From Chiloscyllium plagiosum (lineage: Eukaryota): a DNA stretch of 64,000 nt. The notes under the pieces are model-generated. The model was not told the origin of the DNA, made no database searches, and worked only from the letters and a program-made list of their open reading frames with translations. The stretch's first letter is position 1, and the number at the start of each line of letters is the position of its first letter. Below are positions 12,091 through 64,000 of this stretch, one piece after another. The position numbers were made by a program, and so were the translations under genes. The DNA lies in the NCBI RefSeq assembly GCF_004010195.1, contig NC_057718.1, forward strand, positions 83,588,624 through 83,652,623, in the 5' to 3' direction.

Positions 12091-13248
12091 TTAAGAATCT
12101 ACATTTATAATCTGCAAATGTGAGCTATGATCTGATGGATTTCCATGTTTCACACACTTTTTTTGTGTATAAACGTGTGCCTCATGTGCCTTTGTGTGTA
12201 TGTGCGTGTGCCTTCAGATGAGCACACTTTTTCTCATGCCCCTCATTGTAAGTTGTTTCTGGACATTTAATAAACCTGCTTCTCCAAAAAACAACCTGCA
12301 TTTATATAGTGCTTTTCAATGCAGTAACACATTTGAAGACTCTTCACAAGTGTACAATCAGATAACAATTGACACTGAGGCAAAGAAGGAGGCATTAGGA
12401 TATGTGACAACATGTGTTATCACACTGGTAGGTTTAAGCAAAGCCTTAAAGGCAGGATGGAGAAACAGGAGTGTGGCCAGACAGCTCAGAGCCTGAACGG
12501 CAAGGCCTGAAACCAGAATAGGCAGCTTTTGAGCAGCCCAGGCCCGATGGGACTTTCAGGACAGGTCAAGCACAAAACATCCACATAAGACAAGGGCAGG
12601 CAAGGAGACTTGCCATGACAGTGAGGCTGGTTTGTGATTTGGAGTACAGCCGGTAGACTTGGGTTCCCACCATGACCATGTATGGAAAGAGGGATAGCCC
12701 TTGACACATCAGAATATGAATGCTGAGGGTAGCCCGAGCATCATCCATACATGACATGGGGGATCCAATTGGATGCCGTGGCCTTGACCTGGAAGAATGA
12801 TTGGCTGAGGGCCAAAGAACATTCTGGAAGGGTAAAGCAGGGAGGGATAAGAACAGAAACCTGGTGATAATTCCTTCAATGAAGACTGGGTCTGGATCGA
12901 AGCTCCGATCACCTGGGGGAGGAAGAAAGAAAGAAGACAACCAGGTGCAGGAGCAACCTTTGCCAAGTTCATCAGAGCCAGTTACAGCTTGGCCAAGTTC
13001 AACTGCACAGATCATATCTGGTGTAAGCCTGGTAAGCTAACAATAATTTAGATATGAATTGCAACAAAGACTTAACTGTATGATTGGTAGAGTAATTAAT
13101 ATAAGAATTGGAGTTTCATCATGAATGAGCAGAGGTTTAGATAATATTTGGTCAAAAGGCCCCTTTTTTGTCTTGTGTATTTTGTGCATGAAATTATGTT
13201 AAATTGCAAGTCAACTCTAACCCTTTTGTCTGCCTAACAAGTATAGTA

Positions 13249-14734
13249 GGAGAAGGTGAGGACTGAAGAATCTGAAGATCAGCATCGAGAGTGTGGCGCT
13301 GAAAAACACAGCAGGTCAGGCAGCATCCCAGTAGCAGGAGAATCAATGGTTCTGGCATAAGCCCTTCATCAGGCATGAGGCTTGTGGGCCGGGAGGCTGA
13401 GAGATAAATGGGAGGGGTTTGGGGCTGGGGGGAAGGTGGCTGGGAATGTGATAGGCAGATGAAGGTTGGGGAGAAGGTGGTAGGCCAGAGAGGAGAGTGG
13501 AGCGGACAGATGGGAAGGATGATGGACAGGCGCTGAGTTGGAAGGTTGGATCTGGGATAAGGTGGTGGGAGGGGAAATGGGGAGACTGATGAAATCCACA
13601 TTGATGACCTGGGGTTGGAGCATCCCAAGGTGGAAGGTGACCTGTTTTTCCTCCAGGCTTTGGGTGCTTAAGGCATGGCGATGGTGGAGGCCCAGGACCT
13701 GCAAGTCCTTGGTGGAGTGGGGCGGGGCTGTGGAGTTGGTTGGTGTGGGTGTCCCAGAGATGTTCTCTGAAACATCCTGCAAATTGGTGTCCTGTTTCCC
13801 CGATGTAGAGGAGACGATACTGGGTGCAATGGTTACAGTAGATAACATTTGTGGAAGTACAGGTAAATTTCTGCAGAAGGTTCCTTTGAGGCATTGTACA
13901 GAGGTGAGGGAGGGGGTGTGGCACAGGTTTTGCACTTCCTGCAGTGGCAGGGGAAGGTGCTGGGAGTGGGGAGTGGACTGATGGGGGTATGGATCTGACA
14001 AGGGAGTCACGGAGGGAGTGGTCTCTCCAAAACACTGATAGGGGTGGGGAGGGAAATGTATCCCCTTTGGTGGGGGTCTGTTTGTAGGTGGCAGAAGTGG
14101 CAGAGGATGATGCAATGTATATGGAGGTTAATGTGGTGGAAGGTGAGGACCGGGGGGGTTGTATCCTTGTTGCATTGGGAGGGGTGGATTTCAAGGGCGG
14201 AGTTGTGGCAAGTGGAGGATATGCACTGGAGGGCATTGTTGACCATGTGGGAGGGGAAATTGTGGTCTTTGAAGAAGGAGGCCATCTGGGATTTTTCTAT
14301 GGTGGAATTGATCCTCCTGGGAGCAGAGGCAGATGAATTGGGAATAAGGGATGGTGTTTTACAGGAGCCAGGGTGGGAGGAGGTGTAGTCCAGGTAGCTG
14401 TGGGTGTCGTTGGGTTTTGTTGTGGATATACATGGTTAGTCGTTCGCCCGAGATGGAGATGGAGAGGTCCAGGAAGGGGAGGGAGGTGTCTGAGATGGTC
14501 CAGGTGAATTTGAGGTTGGGGTGAAAGGTGTTAGTGAAGTTCATGAACTAATCCAACTCGTCGTGGGAGCATGAGGCAGCACCAATACAGTCATTGATGT
14601 AGTGGAGGAAAAGGTGGGCACCCTGGCCCACAAGCCTCATTCCTGATGAAGGGCTTATGCCCGAAACGTCGATTCTCCTGCTCCTTGGATGCTGCCTGAC
14701 CTGCTGTGTTTTTCCAGCACTACACTCTCTACTC
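13249..14734 (-). mobile_element. Penelope-like retroelement (RT C-terminus plus GIY-YIG), 5'-truncated with inverted pLTR
   Basis: LFLHYINDCIG (YIDD-like), FHPNLKFT, LPFLDLSI, and FTCTSTNVIYCNHC...LYIGETG..FREH (GIY-YIG). pLTR at 13250-13400 with an inverted copy at 14620-14730. Imperfect TSD ACAAGTATAGTA/ACAAATAGAGTA. Confidence 0.92.
14638..14675 (+). ncRNA. Minimal hammerhead ribozyme motif (PLE family A), intact core
   Basis: CTGATGA(14643-49)-A-GGGC-TTAT-GCCC-GAAA-C-GTC; predicted cleavage after 14670; stem I weak. Confidence 0.7.
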
Positions 14735-15150: not shown

Positions 15151-15597
15151 GATAAAGGTAGAAAATAAGCAATATGAAGTCAACAAGTGACTTAGAAACA
15201 GATAATAAAAGCATTCATAGATTTTTAAAAAGGAATAGATTTGTGTAAGTAATTGTAAGTCCTTACACAGATAGACAAGACAAACTGCAATCAGAATATA
15301 GCAATGGCAGAGAATGAATTAATAATGTGTTTCTTTTTATAATGGAAGACACTAGAATTCAGATATAATAGAGAACCATGGCTTGAGCAAGTATGCGATA
15401 CTTCATGAAATAATACTGCAGAAAGTAATGGGACCAGAAGACTACATTGACGTCATGGGTGAATGGAAACATTTCTGAATGCTAAGCAGACCATGGGATT
15501 TGGGGATAGAAACAGAAGGTGATGTTGAGATATAATCTCAGACCTGATCTTATTGAATGGCAGAGCAGCTGAGAGATAGAAAGCTCCTATTTCTTAT

Positions 15598-15802
15598 AAT
15601 TTGGAGATGCCGGTGTTGGACTGGGGTGAACAAATTAAAAATCACACAACACCAGGTTATAATCCAATAGGTTAATTGGAAGCACACTAGCTTTCGAAGC
15701 ACCGCTCCTTCATCTATCACCTGATGAAGGAGCGTCACTCCGAAAGCTAGTGTGCTTCCAATTAAACCTGTTGGACTATAACCTAGTGTTGCGTGATTTT
15801 TA
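15598..15802. mobile_element. Palindromic non-autonomous PLE unit (family B)
   Basis: Inverted arms of about 75 bp; exact 12-bp TSD CCTATTTCTTAT at 15586-15597 and 15803-15814. Related copies at 24.1 and 44.0 kb. Confidence 0.85.
15718..15752 (+). ncRNA. Minimal hammerhead ribozyme motif (PLE family B), intact core
   Basis: CAC-CTGATGA-A-GGAG-CGTCA-CTCC-GAAAG-CTA^-GTG. Stem I CAC/GTG, stem II GGAG/CTCC, palindromic AGCT helix III; predicted cleavage after 15749. Confidence 0.75.
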
Positions 15803-18800
15803 CCTATTTCTTATGTTCTTATGAAAGAACAGTGGAGGCAATGTTTCCCAATAATGTTCTGACCCATATATATTCCTCAAAGAACATTACTAAAACAGAT
15901 TATCTGATCATGCTGGAGCCTTGGAATCCGCAAATTGACTGCCAAATTTCTTATGTTACAAAGTAAATGTCAAAAAAATATGTCATTAGCTGCAGAATGT
16001 GCAACATAACTGCAAGTTCTTATACTTTCTAATGCTCTGAAAACTTGTAGTTGTGTTTCTAAATGTTGTTAGCTTACAGTTAGAGTTAATTTTCTATTTG
16101 TATATAATGCATATATTCTGTCCTGCCTGACAGCTTGGAGAAAATAATGCACTGAAACAAATCTAAAGCTATCCCTATAGTATGTCAATATTTGAACTCT
16201 CTGTGTTGTCACCCAAAACCAATGTATGTATCCACCTCCCCTTTTCAGGAATGGATGAGATCAGCTGGGCAGCTTGTTTTTAGCTAGCTTCCCGCTAAGT
16301 CAGCCTCTTCTTAGCAGGCTTCTCTCCAACTCAGCAAGATAAAACAAAAAACTCTGCAAGTCATTGTTCAAGAATGGTCTCAGTAGGGTCTACAGATCAC
16401 CAATGTTAAAAATTCTTCAATGTCCACAGTAAACTTTGAATGATTTATTTTAAAGAAGCCATTGCAGATCTGTCCACAAAACCTAAAATAAATTTCCTTT
16501 TGTATAATCATGCAAAATGTAAATCCTCCAAGCAAAGTTAAATTTAAAGCACCTTCATAAACACGAGTATTTTGTGAAGTATAACTTTCTTGCTTTTGTA
16601 TTTATGGCTCTATTTATAAAGCCTATATTGCCCATGTCCTTACAACTGCCTTCTCGACTTGGCCTGCCATCTCTGAAAAATCTCGGTTTTATTATACCAT
16701 AAAATATCTTTATTTAGGTACGTCTCAGTATATTTTAAATGCAAATATATTTTAACATTTTCAGGAAAATATTAAAGGTTTTTAAAAATGTATGTATTTC
16801 TGCTTTTATTAATTGACTAAATCATTGATTGAAATCTCAGTTCAAATGTATAGGAGGAGGAGGAAAATGAATGTATTTTTAGCAGCATAGTCTGTTGCTT
16901 CCTTATGGTGCAGTATCTTGATTTGTTTTCATTGGTTGCATGTTTCCATGGTAATGATTTCAGGAGTTGAATGTGCAGTGGGTGGGATTTGAAAATTGCC
17001 TTGGGTTGATAATAATTAGCTGACAGATGCATGTCATTTGACCTAGGTAATATATCTTTTTTTAAGTTAATGTGTTTCATAGAAAGGCTGGAGGAGATTG
17101 GCTCCTAAAATGTACAAATGAGCCAAAAGGTTTTTGTGTGTTAATTAACTTTGTTGTAAATGAGCATGATAAAAGGAAAGGTACTGCATTCTTCTAGCAG
17201 CTTTCATGATTTCAGAACAAGCCAAAGAATTCTACAGTCAATAGGTTACTTTGCAATATTTTGACTGATTATGTAATACTTAAAATACTTTGCCCAATTT
17301 TGCAGCTCAACAAATTCTCACAAGTTGCTGGCATTTGGAGCACTGCTGAGACCAGAGACTTGCTCAGCCCTAGGCAGGAGAGGACTCTGTAGTGTCAACA
17401 TTCAGGAACTTAATCCAAAGGCTCTGCTGGAGCAGCAGTGGCAGATAGGGATCTGAGATGCAATAGCCTTATTTGCACAGAAGCTGCATCATGCAGCAAA
17501 TCATGCCACTGTCTGGCTGCCTCCATGGACAGGATGGTGGCATCAATGGACTGACAGGGCCAGCATCCTCAGGGGCTGCTGAAGATGTGCTCACAACAGC
17601 ATTCCATGACCCCAACCCATTGGACTCCAGGACAGAAGGCATGGTGACAGGGGCTGGAGTCTCCCATGCCCACAAGGAAACAGGGCAATGCCAGGAGGCA
17701 CCCAGGTGGAAGTGGAATCACACACAAACACAGGCCCCCCCTGCATTTTGTACTCAGGACCTTGCAGAGGTGGCTAGGCCTTCCATCTCCACCCTGCCTG
17801 CTTCCCTCCAATTCTTGGAGGCACAAGCCATAGACAGTCAACTTACGCCTGGCAAGAAGACCAGTGGCATGTCTGGCCCACCTGGACATGTGCTCCTGGG
17901 GTCCCCACCAAACTTCAAAGCTAATGGGCTCTATTGCCCAGAAGCTCCCTCTAACCCAGCAGAACCGATGAGATACTATGTTGTAGTGGAAGGGGAGAAA
18001 GAAGAAAACCCAAGTGAGAGCGTTTTGGTGGTAGAGGTAAAAAAGGTTTATATGCCCAAATTGGTTTCACTCATGGGATGTGGGTGTTGCTGACTGGCCA
18101 GCATTTATTGCCCATCCCTATCTGCCCTTGAACTGAGTGGCTTGCTAGGCCATTTCAGAGAGCAGTTGGTGTCAACCACATCATTATGGGGATGGAGTCA
18201 CATGTCACCCAAACCAGGTGAGAGTGGAAAATTTCCTTCCCTCACATTAGTAAGACAAATGGGTTCTTCTGACAATTGCCAATGGTTTCATGAAGATCAG
18301 TATGTTCTTAATTCCAATTCTTTTTCCTAATTAAATTCAAATTCCACATCTGCCATTAGCTGAATTTCTGGATTAATAGCCGTGATAATACTGCTAGGCC
18401 ATTGCCTTCCCTCTGTCTCTCTCTGTGTAAGCACTTCACGCCATCAGGCAGCATTTCATGGCCACAGGTGAGACTTTATAGATGGAGGTCTGTGCTGAGA
18501 ACCTGTAGCATTATCTGGAAGTAACAGGGAAAATGCATACCTCTGCTATTGGCTCATGATGACACCTTCATCCTTCCTCATTCAGCATCCTTTATGTTTT
18601 GCTCCTACTATGCACAAAAGTATAGCTGTGAATGAATTGTCCACCAGGAAGCTTTAACTCACAGAGAGGGTCAATGCTGTAGGATGGCCCGGGAATAAGT
18701 AACCTGCATGTCTTTGTGCTGTACATCACATGGGTGTGTGTCCAATGCTATTTCCTTTTTAGAACCCTCTGATCAGTACTTACCGCAGCGTCATCCCTCA

Positions 18801-24017: not shown

Positions 24018-24074
24018 CTTCACAGTTAATGACTTACTTATGGAAGTGCAGTCACTGTTACATAGGAAAAGACA

Positions 24075-24291
24075 TGATTTGGAGATGCTGATGTTGGACT
24101 GGGGTGTATAAAGTTAAAAATCACACAACACAAGGTAATAGTCCAACAGGTTTAATTGGAAGCACATTGGCTTTCGGAGCGCCGCTCCTTCATCAGGTGA
24201 CAACCACCTTTGAAGGAGCGGCGCTCCAAAAGCTAGTGCTTCCAGTTAAACCTGTTGGACTATAACCTGGTGTTGTGTGATTTTTAACTCT
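24075..24291. mobile_element. Palindromic PLE unit (family B) in intron 1
   Basis: Inverted arms, each with a mutated hammerhead. TSD GAAAAGACA/GAAAAGATA at 24066-24074 and 24292-24300. Confidence 0.85.
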
Positions 24292-24649
24292 GAAAAGATA
24301 CCAGTTTACAAGGTTCTGCAAACAGCAGTGATATAAATGACCGTGTTGGTGGTTGAGGGATTACTATTGGCCAGGATACAGCAAGATCTCCCATGTGCTT
24401 CTTCAAATAGTGCTATGTCAAATCTTACACCTAGCTGATCAGGCAGTTGCAGTTTTGGTTGAATATCGCAACCAAACAAAATACAACATTGACTGTGCAG
24501 CACTCTCGAAAGCCAGGATTAATTACTTAAATCCTGGAATGAAATTTGAAAGCATTACCTTCAGATTCAGAGCAAGGAAGTGCTACCACTGATATAAAGC
24601 TAACACCTGTATGACAGCATAATAATATAAAACAGCTGTTATTGTTGGA

Positions 24650-24802
24650 CATCTGAAACAAAAACAGAAATTGCTGAAGAAACTCAGCAGGTCTGGCAGC
24701 ATCTGTGGAGAGAAATCAGCTAACGTTTCAGATCTGATGGTCTTTATTCAGAACCTCTTCAGAGCTTCTGAAGAAGGGTCACTGGATTCAAAATGTTAAT
24801 CC
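24650..24802. mobile_element. PLE pLTR palindrome (family C), degenerate hammerhead
   Basis: CTGAAGA-A-GGGTC-ACTG-GATTC-AAAA-TGTT on +, with an inverted partner at 24720-24755. Confidence 0.65.
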
Positions 24803-32340: not shown

Positions 32341-32811
32341 GATTTTACAAGTGAATGTTCTTTCTTTCATTATTTTAAACATGTTATTCTCATAAACCCA
32401 TCAATGATCAAAGAATGAATGGCTTTTGATACATGCATTTATGTATGTTGAGCACATCTTACTTGGTTGCATGTGGGATTTCAATGTTTTAGTAGTGTGG
32501 TTTGCATTGAAATAACATCTTTTCATATCAAAATGCCCCATATGCAAAATATTATTGTTCTTTAGATAAACATGCAACCTTTAGACAAACATTTTGAACA
32601 CATCACAATCCTACAAACAATAGTTGAAAAAAACCGTCAATTTATTTCATGGTGTGAGTTGATGAGGAAAATATCAGCTAAGAGACACAAAAACCTTTCT
32701 GTTTCTTCAGTTCGTATTGTAGGCTCTAATATCCATATGACTATGGGATCAGATAGAACCTTTGTTTATTATCCCATCTAATCAGTGACACCTTCAACAA
32801 AAAAACAAATT

Positions 32812-33690
32812 TAAAAATTGCTGAGAAAAAACACATATTGCCAAAGTTTTTGCCTTGCACTCAGCAGAACATTTCACAAGAACACCAATTCAAGTGGAAA
32901 ATCAACATTTGGAAAGCTAAGGTATCTTAAAGGTTTGAATAACATGTGAAGCTAGCTGTCTCACACTGCTACTGTGCAATAGCAACACAAATGGTGTTTA
33001 TCACTAACAGGATGCTGCCAACAAGTCAAAAAGGTGTTCTATCAACAATGTGTAATGTGTTTTATGAATTACAGTGCCAGTGTGGTGCCAAGTACGTAGG
33101 TAATGCATTACAAAGATCAGATCATACCAAACAGTATATTCCTTCAGCTGTGCACAAAGTACTGCCCATACCAAACGAGTCCCAATTTGCAAAACTAGTA
33201 ACACAGTGTCCAATTTGGGTTTTGATTCTGAAGTTGGACATCTGCTGGATAATCATGAGCATGCATGCAATATACTGACAACTAATTTCGGATTGTCAAT
33301 CTGGCCTGTGGTGTGGTGCACTTGTATGAACTGGAGCCACATATATTAATACAAAGAGTCCTGTACATTGCAAGGAGAAAGAACATATACACATACATTG
33401 CACCTATTTCAATTCAACAGAATAGGTGAGAGCCATTCACTGGTTTGTTTCTCCAGGTGATGTCTTGACCAATTTGAGTCAAGTTTAAAATTTAAACAAA
33501 GCCTGGCAGCTAACTGTCAATCAGCATTAATGAATGTATTCTACATGGTAACACCCCTACCAACCAATCAGTCCTGTATGACATATATTGTAAATGTTGG
33601 ATTTCCACTTAAATCGGTATTTTTGTGAAATGTCCTGATGTGTTCAAGACAAAAAGCTTTGACAAAACGTATCTTTGTCAGTAATATTCA
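32812..33690 (+). mobile_element. Penelope-like element (family D): GIY-YIG remnant with inverted pLTR
   Basis: CNVFYELQCQCGAKYVG (GIY-YIG-like). 32812-32910 is an inverted copy of 33592-33690. Degenerate hammerhead GTC-CTGATGT-GTTCAAGAC-AAAA-AGCTTT-GAC. Confidence 0.75.
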
Positions 33691-34599
33691 ATTTCTGTAT
33701 TATCAAATGATTAATTTAAAAATATACATACTTTTATCATATTGTCATCACTAATAATATTGTTGAGCCAGTCCCTTACAATGTCTGGTAAATCACAATA
33801 GTTCCACATCCCATCACACCCATAAGTTGTGCAATCTACTGAGAAAATTGAGACGGATGAGGGAATAAAAATCTGGAGCATTCTTCCCTGATCTTATTAA
33901 GTGAACAAAATTGGCCCTAGAAACCACTTTGGTTATAATTAATATTATACTTTTGCTGCCTTATAGTAGATTTAGGCGAAGAAAAGTGGGAGGAGCTTGA
34001 TTAGAGCACAGTAGACCATGGACTGGGTGTGTCAAAAGGCCCGTGTTTTATATCCTATGTAGTCCTAAGTACATGTGATTTCTTGTTGCCTTGAGAATAT
34101 CTTGATCTGACTGAGTACCTTGTGAAGCCACTTTTAAAAATTTGTTTTTGATATAGGGGTCACTGACTCGGCCAGCCTTTATTGCCCATCCTAATTGCAC
34201 TTGAGAAGGTGGTAATGAGCTGCCTTCCTGACCAGCTGCAGTCCTTGAGGCATAGGGTCACCTACAGCACTGTTAACAAGGGAGTTCCCAAAGTTGGACT
34301 AGCAGTGAGGAAACGGTGAAATGTTTTCAAGTCAGAATGGAGATTTGGGGATCAGTAAGAGTCAGTCATTTTGGTGTAGGACTTGAGTTGCATTATATAA
34401 GACCATATGACTAGCTAATAGCTTTAAGCTGATTGATTTCTTTTGGTTCTGGATGTTAAAAATTGAATTCCAATTCTCAAAGCATTATGATGGATTTTGA
34501 ATATGCATAATATTGTGCTGAAGTGTCACTGTAGCTGAATTCCTTATATCCTGACTGGAAATTAATTGAATCCTTAGATTTATGTTAGACATAAGAGTG

Positions 34600-41855: not shown

Positions 41856-42082
41856 TAGCTTTTACTTCTAAACAGACACTTTATAGAGATACCTTTTGAC
41901 AGTGGGTTGGGTGAACAATATTTTGCCTTCTGCATCACTGTTTAAGCCAGTTAAGTACTTCTGAGGTCACTGCTGGTAATGTAGGAAACACAGTAACCAA
42001 ACTGTGCACAGCAAAGTTCCAAAAATAGTGATGTGATAATGGCTAGAGAAGAAGTCTCAGCAATGGTGGTTGATATAGGCAA

Positions 42083-42299
42083 GGAAGAGAAAGTGAGGAC
42101 TGCAGATGCTGGAGATCAGAGTCGAGAGTACGGTTCTGGAAAAGCACAACTGGTCAGGCAGCATCCGAGGAGCAGGAGAATCGGCTTTTCAGGCATAAAC
42201 CTGATTCATGATGAAGGGGTTATGCTCAAAACGTTGATTCTCCTGCTTCTTGGATGCTGCCTGACCTGCTGAGTATTTCCAGCACCACACTCCCGACTC
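42083..42299. mobile_element. Palindromic PLE unit (family A) in intron 3
   Basis: Inverted arms; exact 12-bp TSD TGATATAGGCAA at 42071-42082 and 42300-42311; hammerheads mutated. Confidence 0.85.
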
Positions 42300-42569
42300 T
42301 GATATAGGCAAAGATCTAAGGAGAGCTTTCTCTGTTCCTCTATACTCACCTGAAAAAGTAGATTGGATGACACTTTCAACAGTGTAGGACTCCCTGATTA
42401 CTGCATTGTTTAGTAGCTCCAGAGTTTGTCCACAAGTCCACGGAATAGGGCATTACATGTGTATCTAAGTGGTGAGAAAAAGAAAAAGAATTTTGCTAAG
42501 ACAGCAAAATCATCTCAAACCCCAAATAGTGGCATCAAAGGAAGGCAGCAGAGAGATTTTTAAATAAAA

Positions 42570-43718: not shown

Positions 43719-43999
43719 TCATAAATGCAACCTTTACACTGTAATATTTTCTGTCCTTGTCAGATGAAATGAATCAAGGCTTCCTCTTGAAGCTATTTTT
43801 ATTTAACTGAATGCGATTGTGTAATTTCAGCTTAATTGGAGGGGCAACACAACTTGTATGGAATGCACAACGTATTTGTTAAGTTAAAAATCTCAATTCA
43901 CAACAGCACTTTAGCAAGAAAAAAGGAGTGAATTACTGACATCCTCTTCCTGCAACATTTGAAGGTTTGAAATTTGCTTCTCTGCTTTAAGGAACATAG

Positions 44000-44383
44000 T
44001 TAAAACTCGTGCAACACCAAGTTATAGTCCAACAGATTTAATTGGAAGCACTAGCTTTTGGAGCGCTGCTCCTTCATCAGGTGGTTGTGAAGTACACAAT
44101 TGTAAGACACAGAATTTATAGCAAAAGTTTACATGTAATGTAACTGAAATTATACATTGAAAAATACCTTGGTCAACGTATTTTTCAATGTATAACTTCA
44201 GTTACATCACACTGTAAACTTTTGCAATAAATTCTGTGTCTTACAATTGTGTACTCCACAACCACCTCATGAAGAAGCAGAGCTCCGAAAGCTAGTGCTT
44301 CCAATTAAAACTGTTGGACTATAACCTGGTGTTGCGTGAGTTTTAAATTATGTACACCCCAGTCCAACACCGGCATCTCCAAA
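44000..44383. mobile_element. Long palindromic PLE unit (family B) in intron 3
   Basis: Inverted arms of about 170 bp around a short loop near 44170. TSD TTAAGGAACATAG/TTAAAGAACATAG. Confidence 0.88.
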
Positions 44384-45404
44384 TTAAAGAACATAGGAAT
44401 GGAGTAGACCACTTAACGTCTTAAACCTGTTCTGCCATTCAAAGTAGATTATGGTTGACATGACCTAACTCCATTTATCTCCTTTTGCCCATATTTCTTA
44501 ATACCCTTAGTTCAAAATATCTCTCCCAGATTTAAAGTTCACAATTTACTCCCCAGTCAACTGACATCTGAGGAAGAGTTACAAACTTCTACCAACGTTT
44601 TTTATGTGAAAGTGTTTCCTTGGAAATTCTTAGCTCTAAATTTCAGCTCTATATATCCTGGTCCTTGACTCTCCAACTAACAAAAGTACTTCTCTCTATC
44701 TACCTTAACTACACACTTGCAAAAAGAAAATCTTTGATCAATTTACCCCCTAGCCGTTGAAAGGAATACAAGTTTGGTTTGCTCTACTTTTGTAATTTAA
44801 CCTTTATTGTTCCGATAAATCTATACTGCTATTCCACACAGTACTCAATCAGTGGTTAACTAGGGCTTTCGAAAGCTTTAGCATAACTGTTGTAGTCCTC
44901 TAGATATAACCTTTTTGATTATTTTTCATAGCTGTCCATGATATTTTAACAATCTATGCATATGGACCTCTGAGTTATATTTGAACTTCTAAATTTCAAG
45001 TTTATTGCCATTTAGAAAGTGCCTTATTACAATCTTTTAAATTCAAAAATAGCTGGTCTCACATTTGTCTATCTGAAATTTAATTGCTACAGTTTTGCCT
45101 TCATTTCATTTATTTTGTTTATTTTAATTTATCTTATTTATGCTGTTACCTGCAGTATTTGCAATGCAAGCTGTTTTTGTGATAGATTTTTAAAACCTCT
45201 TTACTCATATTGTTCAATGGATTTTTTCTGAACCTTTTCTGACATGTGGGAGAAAGCTTTACATGTGTATGCATTTTATAAAATGATTTATTTAAAGTGA
45301 CCCTGGACATTTCACAGTACGCTCAAATTCCTGTCTAAATGCGTTGGCTTCAACCACTGAAACTAATTTGTCATATTCGCTGTCTTGTTGCACATTTCCT
45401 TTAG

Positions 45405-48625: not shown

Positions 48626-49771
48626 GACTCATGGCAATGATTTTGATTCCCAGATCAGTAACGGAGTGACTGGTGAATTCCAGGCTCCAACTTTTAAAAA
48701 TAGCTACCAGTACTCCTCATTTTCAGTCCCAAGGTCAGGTTGGATTAATTCATATTGGGTGACCCAAGAAGAGCTAAGAAGGCTGATGAATTCTGAGGTG
48801 AGCTGCCTCTGGTCTCCAGCGCCATATCTAATAATTAAACCAAAAGAATAAAATATTCTTCCAACCCTCACCCTTCTTGTCCCTTTTCACCCCCACACAC
48901 TCCATTTGCCCCATTGATGACAACCCCACCTCTTAAAAGTTTGACAGTTCTTTGACATCTTGACAGATCCGAGGGCACATTTGGGCGCAATCTTCTGTAC
49001 TGTTTGCAACCTAAAGATCAGCAGGCTGCTCACTCCCTTCTCTCTCAAAGGCTTCCTTTCAGGATACCTTATCTCTCCAAAGGAATACCCTGGTTAGATA
49101 TTTTAACCAAACCACAAAGTTCCGACCTGTTTTAGCAGCTCTAATGCTCACACTGCAGGTTCCAACAGAGATAACAACATCCAATTTCAGTGGAGTCAGC
49201 TGGTGGTTTAAATAGCCAATACTTCCACAAAATATGCATTATAAGTCCCAGCCTGACACCAGTCCTCCCCCATGAAAATGGGAAGTGCCATGCTCAGTGT
49301 TGGGTCTTGCTATTTATTCCACTTCTGATATTTTTGTAAATTATGAACCAACTGTATATAATGGCATATATTAAAACTCCAGTCCCCTCATAATCTCACA
49401 GACATACATAGATACAGTCAGGTAAATGAAACATGGGTGTTATGAATGGAGGGAAAACTGGAAAAGCAGTTCAGTTTCCTCTGTGCATCAGTTCCAGTGA
49501 GATAGTTCCTGTGCTGATCAGAACACTGCTTCTTTGTCTTCCTTCTCCAGATGTTATCACTGGTTTGCAGGCAGCATAGAGGGGCTGGTTCACACTTATG
49601 AAAGGTCCCTGACATTTTTCATTAAAAGTCATGGTTTACAGCAACTGCTGAAGGAAAATGAACTGCATTTTTTTCCCCATTTTAAAATTACATTTACTGC
49701 AGAGACCAGAGAGAGTCCTGAACTGGTGGAGATCTGATGGCTTCTCAGTATCTTGTTTACGGTCACAAGAT

Positions 49772-49907
49772 CCAAGGAACAGGAGAATCGACATTTCGGG
49801 CATAAGCCCGAAGAAGCCTGAAGAAGGGCTTATGCCCGAAACGTCGATTCTCCTGTTCCTTGGATGCTGCCTGACCTGCTGCGCTTTTCCAGCAACACAT
49901 TTTCAGC
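49772..49907. mobile_element. Palindromic PLE unit (family A) with intact + strand hammerhead core (49818-49845)
   Basis: CTGAAGA-A-GGGC-TTAT-GCCC-GAAAC-GTC. TSD TACGGTCACAAGAT/TACAGTCACAAGAT. Confidence 0.85.
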
Positions 49908-50514
49908 TACAGTCACAAGATGTTTAGCTTCCTCAGAACCAATTACACCATTGTTGGCAAGCAGAAGGCCTTTGTCGCCACTAGTTGGTGATAAATCCAA
50001 AGTCATTAATCAACTACTTGCTGCCAATCAAAGATCCGTTTATACAGAGGTATGTGACCCCAGCTAATCTTCAAACAAAATACAAAGACAGTTCTTCACA
50101 ACATGTTATAGTTACAGTTAATGAACATTGGCCGGGCCATAAACTCATTCATTAAGTACTGATGCAAGCCAACCGCTGAGACATGTATGAAGATAATTTG
50201 AGATCGCTGGCATGACAAGCAAAGCAGTAAAGAGTTGTGGGGATGGGAATGACAACCAGATCAGCTATGGTCTTGTTGAATGTCAGCACAGATTAAAAGG
50301 CCAAAGTGCCTTTGCTTGCTTCTAATTCCAATGTAAAACTGAATGTATAGCTGTGCTTAATATTCTCAAAATAGAATACCTTATTTCTGATTTTCAGCTT
50401 CAGCAATGTATTTGACTCTTAACAAAAAAAAACGTGGTCAGCACAAACCTTGCACCCATAATCTGCAACAGGTTAGGCCCAACCTTGTACTTACATACCT
50501 AGAATATCAGACTG

Positions 50515-53500
50515 TCTTCATGAAGAAGATTTTGTTGGAGTGTTGCGGATTCTAAGCAGCAGACATCTACTGCCTGCAGGATTTCCCGAGTGCAAGGTAT
50601 ATTGATGTGACCTTCAGGAGCTTGATGCAGTGTGAGCACGTTTTAAGGGTATTTAAGGACAAAAAGAAAGGGAGCCTCTGTTCTCCATCATGTCAGCGGT
50701 GTGCTCCCTACACAGAGGAGTCAGGTTGTTACAATCTATATGTACAACTCCCACATCCCAGCAGCTGATGTCCTAACCTTCCTGGGAAGGTATGTGCAGG
50801 TGGAAGGAGACAGCACTGTCATTGTGGACTTCTTTGGAATCTGGACCAGCAAATGGCAGGTCAAGGTGACCCTGAAGGTGGATGCCAGTGGAAACATCCT
50901 CAACCCACTCCCCAGCTTTGCAGTTGGAGGGAGCAGGGGCTACCTGACGTATGCAGGGCAGCCTAAAGTGTGCCGAACCTGTGGGAGAGTTGGACACATG
51001 GCAGTGGACTGTAAGGTGATCATCTGCAGGAATTGCAAGCAGGAGGGTCACCTGACCAAGGACTGTAAAGAGTCAAAGAGCTGTAACCTGTGTGGGGAGG
51101 CGGGCCACATGTACAAGGCCTGCCCAAGACAGGTGTGAGGGATGCTGGGGCACTTACGCACAGATGGCTGGAGGTGGCAATGTGAGCTGTGGACCCCCAA
51201 AGATGAGCAAGGTACCACCAACAAGCAGGGGAATGGAGTCTGCCAGCACCCAGAAGGAAGGATGGGCTAGAGTGGAGCAGCTGGCATCCAGCGTGGAGGC
51301 ACAGCAGCTGAACCAAGCTCCAGTTGGACAGACGAAGGCAACGGAAGAAGAGAAAACCGAGGAAGCGGGGGGAGTGGATTCCGGTGAAAAACAGGAAAAG
51401 GAAAACCCGCCAGGCCTCTAAAGCCTCACAGCAAAGGGGGAAATGACAGCCGCATGGAGAGGAAATGGGCAGCTCCTCAGATGGTGAAGACGGTTGCAAG
51501 GAGGGTCATCACCAGCAGAAGAGGCAGAATGCCACTGGGGAAAAGGAGGGTAGTACCCCCCAACCGGGAAACGACAGACCTCCTAGGGAACTGGTAAAGC
51601 CCAGCCCCCACCTGGTGAGAACCAGGGGTTATCAATTGCCCCACAGCTCCAGGTAACTGGGAGCCACAATCATCTGGCAGCCCCACTGTCAGATGCTGAA
51701 CTGGACTCTGCGGACCCTGGTCTCAACCCGATGACACCAGAAAGGGAAAATGACCCCAGTGAGGAGCCAGACAGCTACCTCAGCCAACAGTTCACCTACA
51801 CCACAGGGATGCAGACAGCCACCCCAGAGACAGGACCATCGGTAAATTGACAATGGTAACCTGATAAACTGTAAAATGGGAGTTAAAATTGCCAGTATTA
51901 ATGTGCATAGTGTTAAATCTTCGATGCAATGTGTTTCTACGATGGCCTTCTGAGTCAACGTTAAAGCCAATGTCCTATTTCTGCGGGAGTGTGGGATTCC
52001 GCACCTCAGCAGCTACAGGAGATGGTCAAGTTTGTGTGCCCATAGGCCATCAGTTTGGTCAGGGTGGGGCAATGATAACCGTCCCTCTGGCCTGGGTGTC
52101 CTGCTGCAAGGGGACAACTTCACCATCTCTGAGGTTACAGAGGTGGTGGGCGGGTGCATCCTCGTCACTGATGTTACATACAGAAATGCTCCCCTGAGAC
52201 TAAGTAGCGTGTACACCCCAGCAGGTAAGAGTGAACAGCTGGCTGTTCTGCAGCAGCTTCCACTGTTGCTGGCTACGTCCAGGCCGGTCATTCTGGCCGG
52301 AGACTTCAACAGTATCATTGATGCAGATGGACGATCCGGCGGGGGGGTCAATAAACTGGATGCCACGCCCAAAGTCCTAGTGGAAATGGTCAAATTTGCC
52401 AAGTTGCACGACGTCTTCAGCACCCCTGCAGACGGAGCGCAGCGTAGATACACCTGGTCACGGGCAGACAGGTCTATCCGCTCAAGGATAGATTACCTGT
52501 TTGTGTCCCGAACGTTTTCGATCAGATCCACAGACGTCAAGCCGATGTTCTTCTCTGACCACTGCCCTCTGCTGGTCAACTGTCACCTACAGGGCAAGCA
52601 GTGAGTTGGTAAGGCAACGTGGAAGCTGAACACAAAGTTATTGACCCCAGGAAACATTGAGGAGCTCAAGAAGGATTTTGCAGGTTGGAGAACCATGAAA
52701 CCCCTCTTTGAGTCCCCAGCGGACTGGTGGGAAACATTTAAATGGAACATCAAGAGGTTCTTCATCCTCAAAGGTGTTCAGGAGGCGAGAGAGAGGTGGG
52801 GAAAACTGTCCCAGCTCCAGGAAAGTATGCAGAAGCTACTCCTGCTGCAGACGATGGGGGTCGATGTCACAGAGGACCTCAAGGAGGTGAAGGGCCAGCA
52901 AGCCTCGCTCTTTCCCTCAGAGGCCTCCAAGATAATCTGCCGGACCAGGATCCACTCGGTGGAGCAGGATGAGACGTGCTCACGTTTCTTTGTCCAGAAG
53001 ATGCACAAAGAGAGCTCCGTGCTCAGCAGCTTGAAGGAAGAAGATGGCTCGCTAACGTCATCTCAGGCTGATGTCATGAGGATCAGCAAATCCTTCTATG
53101 CCAGTCTGTATGACTCAAAACCAACTGACAGTGTGGCCTCCCACTCACTCCTGTCCTCTATCACGGAGGTCTTAGATGACAGAACACAGGAGAGGCTGGA
53201 CCAGCTGCTTTCTCTGGATGAGCTGACCAATGCCCTCGAGTCCTTCAAAAAGAATAAAACTCCCGGAAGCGATGGCTTACCGGTCGAGTTCTATTCCGCT
53301 CTGTGGGACTTGATTGGCCAGGACCTGCTGGAGGAGTATGTCAGTATGCTTCGGGCAGGTACCATGAGTGAATCCATGAGGAAAGGCATCATCACCCTCA
53401 TCTACAAGCGGAAGGGGGAGAGGAAGGAAATCAGAAATTGAAGACAAATCTCACTGCTAAATCTGGATTACAAAATCTTGTCAAAGGTCTTGCCAACTGA

Positions 53501-55402
53501 CTCAGGTCTGCTCTGGGATCAGTGATTCACCCTGACCAAACCTGCGCTGTACCAGGTAGGAAGATCGCTGAGAGTCTTGCATTCCTCAGGGATATGATCG
53601 TCTACATGCAGAACAGGCTGTGGACACCTGCCTCATCAGCCTGGACCAGGAGAAAGCCTTTGACAGGATATTGCACACATACATGAGAGAGGTTCTCTCC
53701 AAATTGGATTTTAGGGAGGGTACCTGCAATTGGAAATGATTGCTCTATACCAACATTGTCAGGACAGTCTCAATCAAAGGGTGGGAATGAGAAAGCTTTC
53801 CGATCGGATCCAGAGTCAGGCAGGGCTGCCCTCTCTCTCCTGTCTTATTTATGTGCTGTGCAGAGCCATTTGCTGAGTCTGTCAGAAAGGACGTGAGCCT
53901 GAAAGGGGTGACTATTCATGGCAGCGGGGGCTGACAGGTCAAGGCCTCCCTGGATGACGTCGTCGTTTTCTGCTCAGATCCGCTGTCTGTGCACAGACTC
54001 ATGTCCATCTATGACCAGTTTGAACAGGCATCAGGGGCCAAGATAAACCAAGGCAAGAGCGAGGCCATGCTCTTTGGAAACTGGGCTGACCAATCCTCTA
54101 TCCCCTTCACCGTCAGGACAGACCACCTGAAGGTGCTGGGTATATGGTTTGAAGGGGCTGAGGCCTGTGCCAAGTCTTTGGAGGAGCGTGTCTCCAAAGT
54201 GAGGCAGAAACTGGGCAGATGAGAGCAACGATCACTCTCCGTCATGGGTAAAAACCTGGTCATCAGGTGTGAGGTACTCTCGGCGTTGTTATATGTGGCA
54301 CACGTCTGGCCTATTCCCCGAACCTGCGCCGCCGCCGGAGATCAAAGATGGACCGGGTCCAAAGGAAAACAATGTACAAAGACCTGGACAAAGGCGGATA
54401 AAACACACCCAACACTACCCTCACCCTGATGGCCACCTTTGTGTGTGGCTGCATCAAGCTGCATGTGGATTCCCAGTACACAACACCAAGTGTCACTATA
54501 TACTGAGGTTCTAACTGTCCCCGGTGTTGCAAAGGATGGGCCTGGCCCCCTCCCACGGGATGCTCCAAGTAGTTGGACTGTTCTATATCACCTGTCCCTC
54601 GTGGAGAAATTTGTGAAGAGAAACACCTTTGACTACAGATCCATCAGGAAGTGGTCAGCACGTAGTGTCCTTGAGACCCTTCGGGAAAAGGAGAGGGCAG
54701 ATCCCGTCGAGCGGTTCCCTGAGCAGACTGTCAAAGTCATTTGGCAGAATGCCTCATCGCCAGAACTTTCCAACAAGCACCAAGATATGGCTTGGCTGGT
54801 GATGAGAAGTGCAGTGCCAGCCCGGACTCTCTGTGCTACTGCATGATACCCTCGAAGCGACTGTGGAGGGGACAAAATGGTCACACACCTCCCTCTGGAA
54901 TGTGCCTCTGTAAGGAAAGTCTGGAGAGCAATGCAGTGGTGTTTGTTGAGGTTTGTCTTGAGCAGCTCCATGATGCGGGACTCTGTGCTCTACGGTCTGT
55001 TCCCTGGGACACACACTGAGATGAACATCAACTGTGCCTGGAGGACCATCAACTCGGTCTGCCCGAAACTTGCTGGTCTTCCAGCTGAAGGAACTGACCT
55101 TGACTGAGTGTTGCAGACTGGCACCTTCCAAGGTCCAGGACTAGGTGCTGAGGGAAGTGCTGAAGCTTGGGATAGATGCCGCCAAGGCGCGGTGGTAACG
55201 GGGGCCGATTTAGTAATTGGGCCCCATGGACATCTCAGCTAAAGGCCAAGAAGCCAGATGGTTAACGTACAGAATTGTAAATACCAATGACTCAGTCTGT
55301 TCTCTGAATATAAAGACATATAACGTATACATCTGAATGGCATCATCAACTGTACAGGTACCAAAGATTTCTATGAATAAAGCATATTTTTGAAATAAAA
55401 AC
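50515..55402 (+). mobile_element. Near full-length Tx1-clade non-LTR retrotransposon, disrupted
   Basis: ORF1 with three CX2CX4HX4C knuckles. ORF2 APE endonuclease (ILAGDFN, SRIDY, SDH) and RT (TPGSDGLPVEFY, LDQEKAFD, VRQGCPLSP). Many stops and frameshifts. AATAAA and A-tail at about 55376-55402. Confidence 0.93.
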
Positions 55403-57078: not shown

Positions 57079-58135
57079 GCCCCTCAAAGATCAATAAGGT
57101 AGCCTGTGTGTGGAGCCACAGGAAATGGGGGAGATACTAAACAAGCATTTTGCATCAGTGTTTACTGTTGAGAAGGTCATGGAAGATATAGAGTGTGGGG
57201 AAATCGATGGTGATATCTTGAAAAATGTCCATATTACAGAAAATAAGATGCTGAATGTCCAAAAACGCATAAAGCTGGATAAACCTCCAGGACCTGATCA
57301 GGTGTACCCTAGACGTCTATGGAAAACTAGGGAAGTGATTGTATAGTCCCATGCTGAGATATTTGTATCATTGATAGTCACAGGTGAAGAACCAGAAGAC
57401 TGGAGATTGGCTAATGTGGTGCCACTATTTAAGGAAGGTGGTAAGGAAAAGCCAGGGAACAAGACAAGGTGAGCTTGACATCATTGGTGGGCATGCTGTT
57501 GGAGGGAATCCTGAGGAACAGGATTCGCTATTATTTGGAAAAGTGAGGACTGATTAGGGATAGTCAACATGGCTTTGTGCATGGGAAATCATGTCTCACT
57601 GACTTGATTGAGTTTTTTGAAGAATCCTATTGGAAGGATGTTGTGAAACTTGAAAGGTTCAGAAAAGATTTACAAAGATGTTGCCAGGGTTGGAGGATTT
57701 GAACTATAAGGAAAGGCTGAATAGGCTGGGGTTGTTTTCCCTGGAGCATCAGAGGCTGAGGGGTGACTTTATAGTGGTTTATAAAACTATGAGGGACATG
57801 GATGAGGTAAACAGACAAGGTCTTTTCCCTCGAGTGGGGGAGTCCAGAACTAGAGGGCATAGGTTTATGGTGAGAAGGGAAAGATGTAAAAGAGACCTAA
57901 TGGGCAACGTTTTCACACAGAGGGTGGTACGAGTATGGAATGAGCTGCCAGAGGAGGTGGTGGAGGCTGGTACAATTACAACATTTAAAAGGCATCTGGT
58001 TGTATATATGAATAGGAAGGGTTAGAGGATATGGGCCAAGTGCAGGCAAATGGGACTAGATTAAGTTGGGATGTCTGGTCAGCATGGACCAGTTGGACCG
58101 AAGGGTCTGTTTCCATGCTGTACATCTCTATGACT
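57079..58135 (+). mobile_element. CR1 ORF2 3' part (internal deletion near 57624)
   Basis: LNKHFASVFT, PGPDQVYPR and RLNRLGLFSLE motifs; tail. Confidence 0.9.
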
Positions 58136-58365
58136 ACCCTGATGGAGAATGGATGTATCATGGGATATTATGTCCATGGTAAAGAGGAGGTGCTTGGAGC
58201 CTGCAAACTGCAAATCTGAAACTGATGAAAAACTGTCAGAGCTCCTGCAGATGTAAATGGAAAAGGATTGGTCAAGTGAAGTGAAAATTGAGTCGAGAAA
58301 GGAAGAGATGAGCCCTGTGGGGCAGGAGTAGGTAGAAATGATGCATCTGCCCATGCAATTGTGTT
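58136..58365 (-). mobile_element. Penelope-like RT fragment
   Basis: GRCIISTYSCPTGLISSFLDSIF...LLFTMDI, similar to 63680-64000. Confidence 0.7.
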
Positions 58366-59410
58366 CATAGAGTCATAGAGATGTGCAGCATGGAAACAGA
58401 CCCTTCGGTCCAGCCTGTCCACTCCGACCAGATATCCCAACCCAATCTAGTCCCACCTGCCAGCACCGGACCCATATCCCTCCAAACCCTTCCTATTATT
58501 ATACCCATCCAAATGCCTCTTAAATGTTGTAATTGTACCAGCCTTCACCATATCCTCTGGCAGCTCATTCCATACTCGTACCACCGTCTGTGTGAAAAAG
58601 TTGCCCCTTAGATCTCTTTTATATCTTTCCCCTTTCACCCTAAACCTATGCCCTCTAGTTCTGGACTCCCCAACCCCAGGGAAAAGACTTTGCCTATTTA
58701 CCCTATTCATAAACCTGCACTCCAAGGTCTCTTTGTTCAGCAACACTCCATAGGATCTTACTATTAAGTGTATAAGTCCTGCTAAGATTTGCTTTCCCAA
58801 AATGCAGCATCTCCCATTTATGTGAATTAAACTCCATCTGCCACTTCTCAGCCTATTGGCCCATCTGGTCAAGATCCTGTTGTAATTTGAGGTAACCCTC
58901 TTCGCTGTCCACTATACCTCCAATTTTGGACTCATCTGCAACTTACTAACTGTATCACTTATGCTCGCATCCAAATCATATATGTAAATGACAAAAAGTA
59001 GAGGACGCAGTACCGATCCTTGTGGCACTCCACTGGTCACAGGCCTCCAGCCTGAAAAACAACCCTCCACCACCACCCTCTTCGACCTTTGAGCCAGTTC
59101 TGTATCCAAATGGCTAGTTCTCCCTGTATTCCGTGAGATCTATCCTTGCTAATCAGTCTCCCATGGGGAACCTTGTCGAACGCCTTACTGAAGTCCATAT
59201 AGATCACATCTACCGCTCTGCCCTTATCAATCATAGAACATAGAACATAGAAAAGTCCAGCACAGAACAGGCCCTTTGACCCATGATGTTGTGCCAAGGA
59301 TTATTCCTAACCTAAAATAAAACAACCTAACCTATGTACCCCTCAATTCACTGTTGTCCATGTGCATGTCCAGCAGTCGCTTAAGTGTCCCTCATGACTC
59401 TGCTTCCATC
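58366..59410 (-). mobile_element. Two CR1 3' fragments (58366-59232 and 59233-59410)
   Basis: YMDFSKAFDKVPH and SGVPQGSVL motifs; two separate tails. Confidence 0.88.
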
Positions 59411-60336
59411 ACCACAGTCTTCTGTGGCTATCTCCATTTCAAACCAATACACTGTTTTGGAAAATGGTTTCTCAGGGGAATGTAGCACGAACAGCCAGGT
59501 TTCTGGTATCGAAACTGGCTGTAATGCAATGAGGCGTACGTCGAGTTCCAAGAGATCAATTGTGTTAGGGGACTCTCTAGTCCGAGACACAGATAGACGT
59601 TTCTGTGGCCAGCAGCGAAAAATCAGAATGGTGTGTGCCAGGATCAAGGATGTCTCAGAGAGGGTGCAGAATGTTCTCAAGGGGGAGAGCGACCAGCAGG
59701 AGGTCATTGTACACATTGGAACCAATGACATAGGAAGGCAAAAAGATGAGATTCTGACAGGACAATATAGAGCGTTAGGCAGGAATTTAAAAAGGAGATC
59801 CTCAAGAGTAGTAATATCTGGATTACTCTTGGTGCTGCGAGCTCGTGAGGGTAGGAATAAGAAGATAGTGCAGATGAATGCATGTCTGAGGAGCTGGTGT
59901 ATGGGAGAAGGATTCACATTTTTGGGTCTTTGGAATCTCTTCTGGGATAGAAGTGACCCGTACAAGAAGGACAGATTGCACCTGAATTGGAAGGGGACTA
60001 ATATGCTGGCAGGGAGATTTGCTAGAGCTGCTCAGGAGGATTTAAAGTATTAAGGTGGAGGGGTGAGACCCAGGGGGATACTGAGGAAAGAGATCAATCT
60101 GAGGCTGGTACAGTTGAGAAAAGCAGCAAGTCAAACAGTCAGAGCAGGCAGAAACAAAGCAGAGAACAACGTAGGGCTGATAAATTAAACTGCATTTACT
60201 TAAGATGGAAATCAGGAGGGCAAAAAGGGGACATGAGATAGCTTTGGCAAATAGAGTTAAAGAGATTCAAATTTTACAAATACATTAAGGATAAAAGGAT
60301 AAAAGGGTAACTAGGGAGAGAATAGGGCCCCTCAAA
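59411..60336 (+). mobile_element. CR1 ORF1 SGNH esterase region plus start of a deleted ORF2
   Basis: IVLGDSLVR, HIGTND and DRLHLN (SGNH/GDSL blocks typical of CR1 ORF1). Confidence 0.85.
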
Positions 60337-60366
60337 TCTTTCGCCTTTTACTAAAGATTTCCGTGG
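60334..60366 (+). ncRNA. RNU5: U5 snRNA segment (stem Ic and loop 1), 5'-truncated, running into the gap
   Basis: AAATCTTTCGCCTTTTACTAAAGATTTCCGTGG matches the recalled vertebrate U5 sequence, including invariant loop 1 GCCUUUUAC. Confidence 0.8.
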
Positions 60367-62070: not shown

Positions 62071-62602
62071 CATATTTTCTGATGGACTTGGCAAACAGTT
62101 CTGTGGGACACAAGAAACAGGCCAGAGGAGAAAGGTTCGCCCTATCTGACACATGGTATGAGAGGAAAGATTTATGCTTCCCATCCATTGATTGAAACTA
62201 TTTTGAAATTTGTAATTGACCACACTTTTTAGAGAAGTGTTCTGCAGGTTTCATTGCCTATTGCATATCCCTGAAAGAGTGAGATCAATTTTAAGACTTA
62301 ATCTATATTTCTATATTTGAAAATAAGTTCCCTCGTCCATTCTACCAACTCCTTTCATCAAGAAAACAGCTAAATTTTATTATCCCTTCATCTTCTACAT
62401 TCAATGGAGTCTTTTTAAATGAATACTTAATTGTACAACTGAGATTGATTGAAATTTTTTAGTAACGGCTGCAGTTAGTTGCAAAACTTAGATGGGAAGG
62501 TGGAGTTAAGAGGAGGATCAGCCATGAGTTAAAGGGGTTGGAACAGGCAAATAGCCAACTCCTGTTCCGATGTTCCCATCTGCACAGTTTACTCTGCCAT
62601 GT

Positions 62603-62726
62603 TGAAGAGCTTATGCCCGAAACATCGACTGTCCTGCTCCTTGGATGCTGCCTGACTTGCTGTGCTTTTTCCAGTGCCACATGTTTTGATTTTGACTCTC
62701 CAGCATCTGCAGGCCTCACTTTCTCC
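62603..62726 (+). mobile_element. PLE family A pLTR fragment
   Basis: GCTTATGCCCGAAACATCG...CCTCACTTTCTCC; 5' half of the hammerhead lost. Confidence 0.8.
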
Positions 62727-63590: not shown

Positions 63591-63663
63591 ATACTATAGT
63601 TTCTCTGCAGCTTGTATAAGTCTTTTGCCTTTTACTAAAGACTTCTGTGGAGATAAACACTCC
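63591..63663 (+). pseudogene. RNU5: U5 snRNA variant or pseudogene, 5' end intact, lacking the Sm site and 3' stem-loop
   Basis: ATACTATAGTTTCTCTGCAGCTTGTATAAGTCTTTTGCCTTTTACTAAAGACTTCTGTGGAGATAAACAC aligns to roughly U5 nt 1-70. Confidence 0.8.
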
Positions 63664-63674
63664 ACAGAATAATC

Positions 63675-64000
63675 CCTCTGCTTGGCTCTACTGCTTCCCC
63701 AAGATCCACAAGTCCAACTACCTCGGCTGACCCATTGTCTCCGCGTGCTCCTGTCGCACTGAACTAATTTCTTCCTGCCTCAACTCTATTCTCTTCCCCC
63801 TTGGTCTCGGCACTTCCAATCTACATCCAGGACATAAATTATGCTCTCCACTTCTTCAGAAACTTACAGTTCCCTGGCCCCCAGGAGCTTCATCTTTACT
63901 TTGGACATGCAGTCCCTATACATGACCTTATACTGCAATGTTGGCTTGCAGGCCCTCAGTTTTTACCTCTCCAACGGACCCATCCGGATCTCTCCACATC
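63675..64000 (+). mobile_element. Penelope-like RT fragment, continuing past the right edge
   Basis: FPKIHK..PIVSACSCRTELISSCLNSIL...FPGP. Confidence 0.8.

Follow-up and report, generated by a model that had tools for sequence, protein, structure and literature searches.

Short hammerhead-bearing inverted repeats in shark DNA as probable decayed, truncated insertions of a Penelope-like element

The window analysed here, a stretch of 64,000 nucleotides from the shark Chiloscyllium plagiosum, contains three related inverted-repeat units, referred to as family B. These units are real, are derived from a Penelope-like element (PLE), and are mostly decayed insertion products that represent a known pattern at its shortest. 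An origin as PLE insertion products is considered very likely, and the more specific reading, that they are dead and severely 5'-truncated EN+ PLE insertions whose two arms were joined by twin priming, is considered probable. The architecture itself is already published (Arkhipova 2013, Cervera 2014, Craig 2021).

Anatomy of the units and state of the hammerhead motifs

Each of the three units is a head-to-head pair of one sequence (Table 1). The relationship between the units proposed in the initial annotation was borne out, with units 1 and 2 matching each other at BLAST E values of 1e-59 to 1e-62. The arms are 81–92% identical, the total unit length is 205–385 nt with no coding sequence left between the arms, and no further copy of the family B units was found within the 64-kb window. 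In element orientation the layout is composed of a target-site duplication (TSD), the inverted tail-less arm, the tailed arm, the tail and the second TSD. The tail is unpaired and is found on one end only (38, 39 and 38 nt in units 1, 2 and 3). The constant terminus described initially is present, but on one end rather than both, and it is letter-exact in unit 3 alone.

The TSDs were also confirmed, although the range of 9–13 bp originally given is replaced by 7–13 bp, as the individual lengths are 12, 7 and 13 bp. The unit 1 duplication is exact (12/12), a score reached by 0 of 2996 random flank pairs, the unit 3 duplication matches at 12/13 positions (1/2996), and the exact 7/7 duplication of unit 2 is weak alone, with 54/2996 random pairs scoring as high. 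The spans of 15598-15802 and 44000-44383 stand, while the start of unit 2 is moved from 24075 to 24073, as only then does its TSD abut both ends. This start is further supported by the family tail, which goes on with CATG like that of unit 2 (loose ends in 4/4 runs).

Units 1 and 3 (15586-15823 and 43987-44410) both lie inside a similar AAGAA(C/A)ATAG motif, which we take to be part of a shark CR1-type LINE. A target preference of the PLE may be reflected in this motif (n=2).

Table 1. Coordinates of the family B units and of the PLE family A copies in the window
Feature	Position	Strand	Basis or remark
Unit 1 left TSD, 12 bp, exact	15586..15597	.	Flank comparison
Unit 1 tail, 38 nt, unpaired	15598..15635	-	
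Unit 1 tail-bearing arm	15636..15714	-	Starts within the hammerhead core, at +2 from C3
Unit 1 tail-less inverted arm	15714..15802	+	
Only intact minimal type I hammerhead core	15718..15752	+	Predicted cleavage 15749/15750
Unit 1 ATTAAA polyadenylation signal of pLTR	15761..15766	+	Sequence; use shown family-wide
Unit 1 right TSD	15803..15814	.	
Unit 2 left TSD, 7 bp, exact	24066..24072	.	
Unit 2 tail, 39 nt	24073..24111	-	With family-wide CATG extension
Unit 2 tail-bearing arm	24112..24199	-	Start -3 from C3; cleavage triplet broken (CCA)
Unit 2 tail-less arm	24200..24291	+	Start -8; core broken twice (CUUUGA, G12>A)
Unit 2 right TSD	24292..24298	.	
Unit 3 left TSD, 12/13 match	43987..43999	.	
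Unit 3 tail-less arm	44000..44172	-	Start about -93; G12>A
Unit 3 tail-bearing arm	44173..44346	+	Start -93; G5>C
Unit 3 ATTAAA	44304..44309	+	Poly(A) site of the family falls at 44321-44324
Unit 3 tail, 38 nt	44347..44384	+	Last T shared with TSD
Unit 3 right TSD	44384..44396	.	
PLE family A copies	13236-14729, 42075-42313, 49756-49915, 1640-1773, 62595-62726		

The hammerhead core of unit 1 is complete exactly as first described, with the palindrome AGCU replacing helix III. A hammerhead motif on each arm, however, was an overstatement: the features of minimal hammerhead ribozymes (min-HHRs; the core, the 9/10.1 bulge, the G10.1-C11.1 pair and the palindromic 15.2-16.2) were found in one of the six arms, as well as in the two metagenome contigs described below, and the remaining five cores are cut or mutated (Table 1). 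Of the 5 matches that Rfam gave at E<=1, 0 were to a hammerhead model.

The two motifs of a unit lie on opposite strands, and any read-through transcript consists of one sense motif and its antisense, contrary to the initial description of paired ribozymes. The antisense arm is made first in the read-through RNA, and the hairpin has a predicted energy of -124 to -270 kcal/mol. For unit 1, the predicted pair probability of the hammerhead falls from 0.80–0.95 for the bare core to 0–0.17 for the core within its arm and to 0.000 for the complete unit, which argues against a function of the ribozyme-bearing hairpin proposed for transcripts of either strand. The pairing of the two arms is thus predicted to lock away the sole intact core, and as judged by folding the paired ribozymes are not a working arrangement.

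Preferential conservation of the core across copies, the lack of which had been named initially as part of a refuting outcome, was not found, with core differences in 6/70 cells versus 33/451 elsewhere (p=0.63). A non-conserved core is what is expected of dead copies and leaves a ribozyme in the master element unrefuted. The majority of reads from other copies restores G5 (1082/1109 reads), and the CpG at C11.1/G12 has decayed in 332/1699 and 261/1768 reads, these variants being taken from the 40 of 76 variant places listed, in which A-to-I editing is indistinguishable from copy differences. An intact majority core together with mutated copies points to a master with a good ribozyme motif, from which the copies drift. 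Support for a real structure in the masters is also provided by a second PLE family in the window, family A, in which the fold is kept although its bases differ (stem II GGGC/GCCC, palindrome ACGU); the stem changes between the two families were read directly from the sequence, and the loop is 4 versus 5 nt. In the one poly(A) library, which is poorly suited to this purpose, molecule ends were not listed as piling up at the predicted cleavage site. Cleavage as a dimer was reportedly described by Lunse et al. in 2017.

The wider family and its putative coding partner

Searched with a single family B arm, three runs yielded 28,567, 35,002 and 5,365 matching contigs, and approximately 2% of one RNA run yielded 3,281 reads, none of these being copy numbers. 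A likeness of at least 99% to unit 3 was seen in only 12 reads; the reads therefore come from other copies and are silent on the expression of the window loci. In these other copies, poly(A) directly follows the pLTR signal in 1065/3281 reads, with loose ends after 44321 (385 reads) and 44324 (680 reads), 12–15 nt past ATTAAA and approximately 30 nt past the ribozyme. The ATTAAA signal reads AATAAA in about half of the reads. The element goes on upstream of 44180, past the centre of unit 3 (271 reads, agreement 0.87). Family B may already bear a repeat-library name. The tail pattern gave 0 matches in viral contigs and 0 in metagenomes, the core pattern (30 specified bases) gave 0 in viral contigs and two metagenome contigs, L001 and L002, and there was no match in the phage collection. 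A literature search on Penelope pLTR polyadenylation together with transcription start returned nothing, and one on shark repeats listed a single general genome paper.

A PLE origin with a coding partner outside the window, as first suggested, is supported by the tail, the inverted copy and the variable TSD, all of which correspond to published PLE anatomy. An endonuclease/RT partner is linked indirectly via a catshark gene model, P0012, and the two metagenome contigs. P0012 appears to read from a GIY-YIG endonuclease through a pLTR end and tail of this kind. Its residues 2-110 are 83–85% identical to the shark PLE endonucleases P0005 and P0006, and along residues 189-231 it matches, one after the other, the window units' hammerhead, pLTR end and tail (best E 1.6e-6, against 0.004 for the best of 200 shuffles). 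Residues 170-188 match the upstream part of unit 3 poorly, and the gene model is possibly spliced.

The hammerhead identity of L001 and L002 was selected by the search, while its position beside PLE coding DNA was not. These marine hammerheads (L001 967-1001, L002 1331-1365) are identical to unit 1 at 32/35 positions. In L001 there is an RT fragment in inverted orientation, whose RVT_1 match (E 1.5e-5) stays below the curated cut-off. L002 contains an inverted pLTR piece (109 nt, 94%), an endonuclease fragment with a CxxxxCxxC linker and no Pfam match, and a hammerhead, AATAAA and a stretch resembling the tail, which runs to an ATG where the contig ends. The protein of this marine PLE is only 48–62% identical to the shark family, and its tail also ends at ATG. 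P0005, a shark protein, was the sole longer homologue found (52%), and 16 longer relatives, P0012 among them, include RT-bearing proteins of 565–882 aa. In a 14-row unrooted tree, the L002 endonuclease, P0005, P0006 and P0012 fall in one 9-row group (98/96), and P0001 and P0002, which are relatives of family A, fall outside it. A CX2-5CxxC linker preceding GIY-YIG is present in the candidate partners P0005 and L002. According to the available text of PMC8557442 this linker marks Neptune or Nematis, making a Neptune- or Nematis-type PLE the candidate partner of family B. The putative link between family B and an ORF is thus indirect, running through the gene model of another shark and two contigs of another organism. 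A literature search on horizontal transfer of Neptune or Penelope elements in sharks returned nothing.

Pieces of the protein of this PLE were observed in six shark gene models (P0010, P0012, P0013, P0015, P0016 and P0020), annotated as NOXP20-like, septin 5a, XRCC5, PPP1R12A-like, USP8 and one unnamed, as a result of either exonisation or annotation artefact.

Within the window, family A exhibits the same layout around a 1.3-kb RT-endonuclease remnant at 13.2–14.7 kb (RT-thumb and endonuclease), a long copy between inverted pLTRs, and it also occurs as short palindromes with 12–14-bp TSDs, including one at 42.1 kb. Pfam analysis of the degraded PLE frames of the window identified 0 families for 5/5 retroelement frames, one of which was identified by the homologue search. 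At 24672-24800 there is a third inverted pair, itself decayed, whose hammerhead-like cores belong to another family. A fourth PLE-like insertion at 32808-33694 has inverted arms of 73% identity and a variant hammerhead-like motif, and the GIY-YIG-like frame between its arms (32943-33278) gave no Pfam match. U5 snRNA-like sequences are located at 63591-63704 (Rfam 51.8 bits) and 60333-60363 (37.7 bits); the former directly adjoins a PLE RT fragment (63677-63981) and is possibly part of a U5-PLE chimeric retrocopy. A LINE-like inverted repeat (226 nt at 88%, 109 nt at 85%) at 57798-58710 surrounds a PLE RT fragment at 58136-58372, and a degraded L1/Tx1-like element with a zinc-knuckle ORF1, endonuclease and RT spans 50647-55019, as read from ORF translations only.

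Origin of the mirrored arms

The initial annotation offered insertion products or non-autonomous derivatives of a PLE; the former is favoured and the latter is not, because the junctions differ between all three units and likewise among other copies, and the master extends farther on the upstream side. Measured from C3, the tailed and short arms begin at +2 and -7 in unit 1, -3 and -8 in unit 2, and -93 and -93 in unit 3, and other copies match unit 1 only in the bases from -3 onward. The opposite-strand joints in the contigs are all different (7/7, among 15 of 39 joints listed), with the proviso that symmetric junctions are probably under-reported in contigs and that joints called at low likeness within repeats can be unreliable. 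Two of the seven start the arm at 44295 or 44296, adjoining the predicted cleavage site; this is a post hoc observation on very few joints, explicable by helix I complementarity, and is only a lead. Loose ends before 44254 (-12 from C3; 229 reads, 76 contigs) are confounded by subfamily divergence, and those at 44346 are confounded by the local divergence of unit 3 and are no proof of a tail-less end class.

For the mirror arm, twin priming is favoured over fold-back. We infer each step of this mechanism by extension of the biochemistry of the Anolis element PAc. The element protein would make staggered nicks 7–13 bp apart in AT-rich DNA, after which one nick would prime inside the RNA at the distal start site to give the arm with the tail, and the other would prime at the proximal start site to give the arm without it. 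Both cDNAs would run only 80–180 nt upstream, and repair would join their ends. The hammerhead would be a passenger from the master, in which it probably acts as a dimer or is assisted by protein, and in the window copies it would be mutated or base-paired to its own antisense arm.

Several features of the units are consistent with this scheme. The RT-start end of either arm points outward and abuts the target, the arrangement expected if TPRT had begun at each nick, and the tail-less ends fall within approximately 5 nt of one site in 3/3 units. The upstream reach of the tail-less arm exceeds that of the tailed arm in both unit 1 and unit 2, as well as in the family A palindrome at 42.1 kb, an outcome that simple snap-back of the tailed cDNA could not produce. 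The asymmetric short units all behave in this way (3/3, two from family B and one from family A; p=0.25, two-sided), a tiny sample in which hairpin-tip deletions could mimic it. Also weighing against twin priming, PAc has no strand difference in start-site use in the available text of PMC11167929, leaving the one-tail rule unexplained by PAc alone. The indirectness of the link to a coding partner, set out above, weighs against the explanation as a whole. A literature search on Penelope-like twin priming of inverted repeats returned no title on PLE mechanism. The generalisation that PLE inverted repeats arise by twin TPRT, with each PAc-type start site serving one nick, is tentative and falls a little short of an even chance.

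The mirror arm could alternatively have been formed by fold-back, through self-priming of one cDNA or an antisense template followed by endonuclease trimming at the tail boundary, an account we consider rather unlikely. It has been proposed in print from junction palindromes (PMC3846280, available text), and EN-mediated resolution of the tail has likewise been proposed (PMC8557442, available text). The centre of unit 3, which is symmetric within 1–2 nt, is as fold-back predicts and counts against twin priming. The tail-less arms of units 1 and 2 and of the 42.1-kb palindrome, however, hold upstream sequence that is absent from the tailed arm. The arms of unit 2 also differ by a 2-nt GT indel that segregates in the family (379/1951 reads), which speaks against fold-back, though slippage could explain it.

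It is very improbable that the units belong to a self-propagating, non-autonomous palindromic element of MITE- or retrozyme-like type that is copied as a unit. The similar sizes of units 1 and 2 (205 and 219 nt), their 84% identity end to end and the great abundance of the family would fit such an element, but the three units have three different centres, seven different joints are found elsewhere, the tail is at one end only, the TSD is variable, and there are no tandem direct copies. A MITE-like element was rejected on the three centres, the one-sided tail and the three TSD lengths, and a non-LTR retrozyme on the inverted single pairs with no tandem copy in place of direct tandem repeats.

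An origin as working ribozyme or hairpin modules that the host retains in introns of a TMEM178-like gene, for regulated cleavage or dsRNA, is the least credible. In its favour there is one intact core, units 2 and 3 are flanked by exons of this gene and unit 3 keeps a sense ATTAAA, but the core decays as fast as other positions (the 6/70 versus 33/451 given above), both gene-sense intronic cores are broken, the intact core is approximately 5 kb upstream of exon 1 and predicted to be sequestered, and unit 3-like reads are scarce (12/3281). The gene around units 2 and 3 is likely TMEM178 (atlas score 0.93; claudin-like last exon, E 1.2e-6), and the poly(A) signal of unit 3 lies in the host-gene sense before the last exon.

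The formation of PLE inverted repeats and tails is stated as unresolved in the available text of PMC8557442, and the tens of thousands of contigs that match this family are a natural data set for weighing twin priming against fold-back. If twin priming is true, junction asymmetry and arm-to-arm subfamily mismatches in ORF-free stubs provide the test. The shark stubs may, in addition, spread poly(A) signals over the genome, and host gene models (septin 5a, XRCC5, USP8 and PPP1R12A-like isoforms) have taken up fragments of the family. Annotators should be aware that such units resemble MITEs, miRNA hairpins or paired ribozymes.

Comparison with known systems

PLE insertions are typically composed of an inverted 5'-truncated copy and a 30–40-bp one-sided tail (Craig et al. 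2021, PMC8557442, available text), and inverted pLTRs, 8–10-bp TSDs, a 31-bp tail and a self-priming model are described in the corresponding part of Arkhipova et al. 2013 (PMC3846280). The shark units share with these EN+ PLE complex insertions the head-to-head inverted truncated copy, the one-sided tail, the variable TSD and the heavy 5' truncation. They differ from them, as far as the available descriptions go, in having no coding sequence between the arms and a very high copy number.

Dual min-HHRs located 100–700 bp apart on opposite strands have already been reported for metazoan PLEs (Cervera and de la Pena 2014, PMC4209133), and sharks are not named in the available text of that description. 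The likeness to these ribozymes includes the CUGAUGA core, the extra base 9/10.1, the G10.1-C11.1 pair, the palindromic 15.2-16.2, the lack of loop 3 and the dual opposite-strand motifs. Helix I has 3 bp and helix II has 4 bp here, versus 4–5 and 7–8 bp in Schistosoma in the same text, and cleavage is predicted.

The Anolis element Poseidon_Ac (PAc; Frangieh et al. 2024, PMC11167929) also has its tail downstream of the hammerhead and AT-rich flanks. The available text of this study indicates that PAc cuts and elongates both strands, that two internal RT start sites bound the tail, that the hammerhead is protein-assisted and dispensable for insertion in vitro, and that no RNA ends are found at the ribozyme site, which parallels the missing pile-up in the shark reads. 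PAc belongs to the Poseidon clade and its ORF starts inside the hammerhead. In contrast, the corresponding ATG frame of the shark units stops after 8 codons, their tail ends at ATG, and the candidate partner has a CX2-5CxxC linker.

The animal non-LTR retrozymes are likewise non-coding, hammerhead-bearing and PLE-related. Retrozymes are made of units repeated in direct tandem, each bearing a hammerhead (PMC7229834 and bioRxiv 10.64898/2026.07.22.740005, available text), whereas the shark units are single inverted pairs with minimal and mostly dead motifs.
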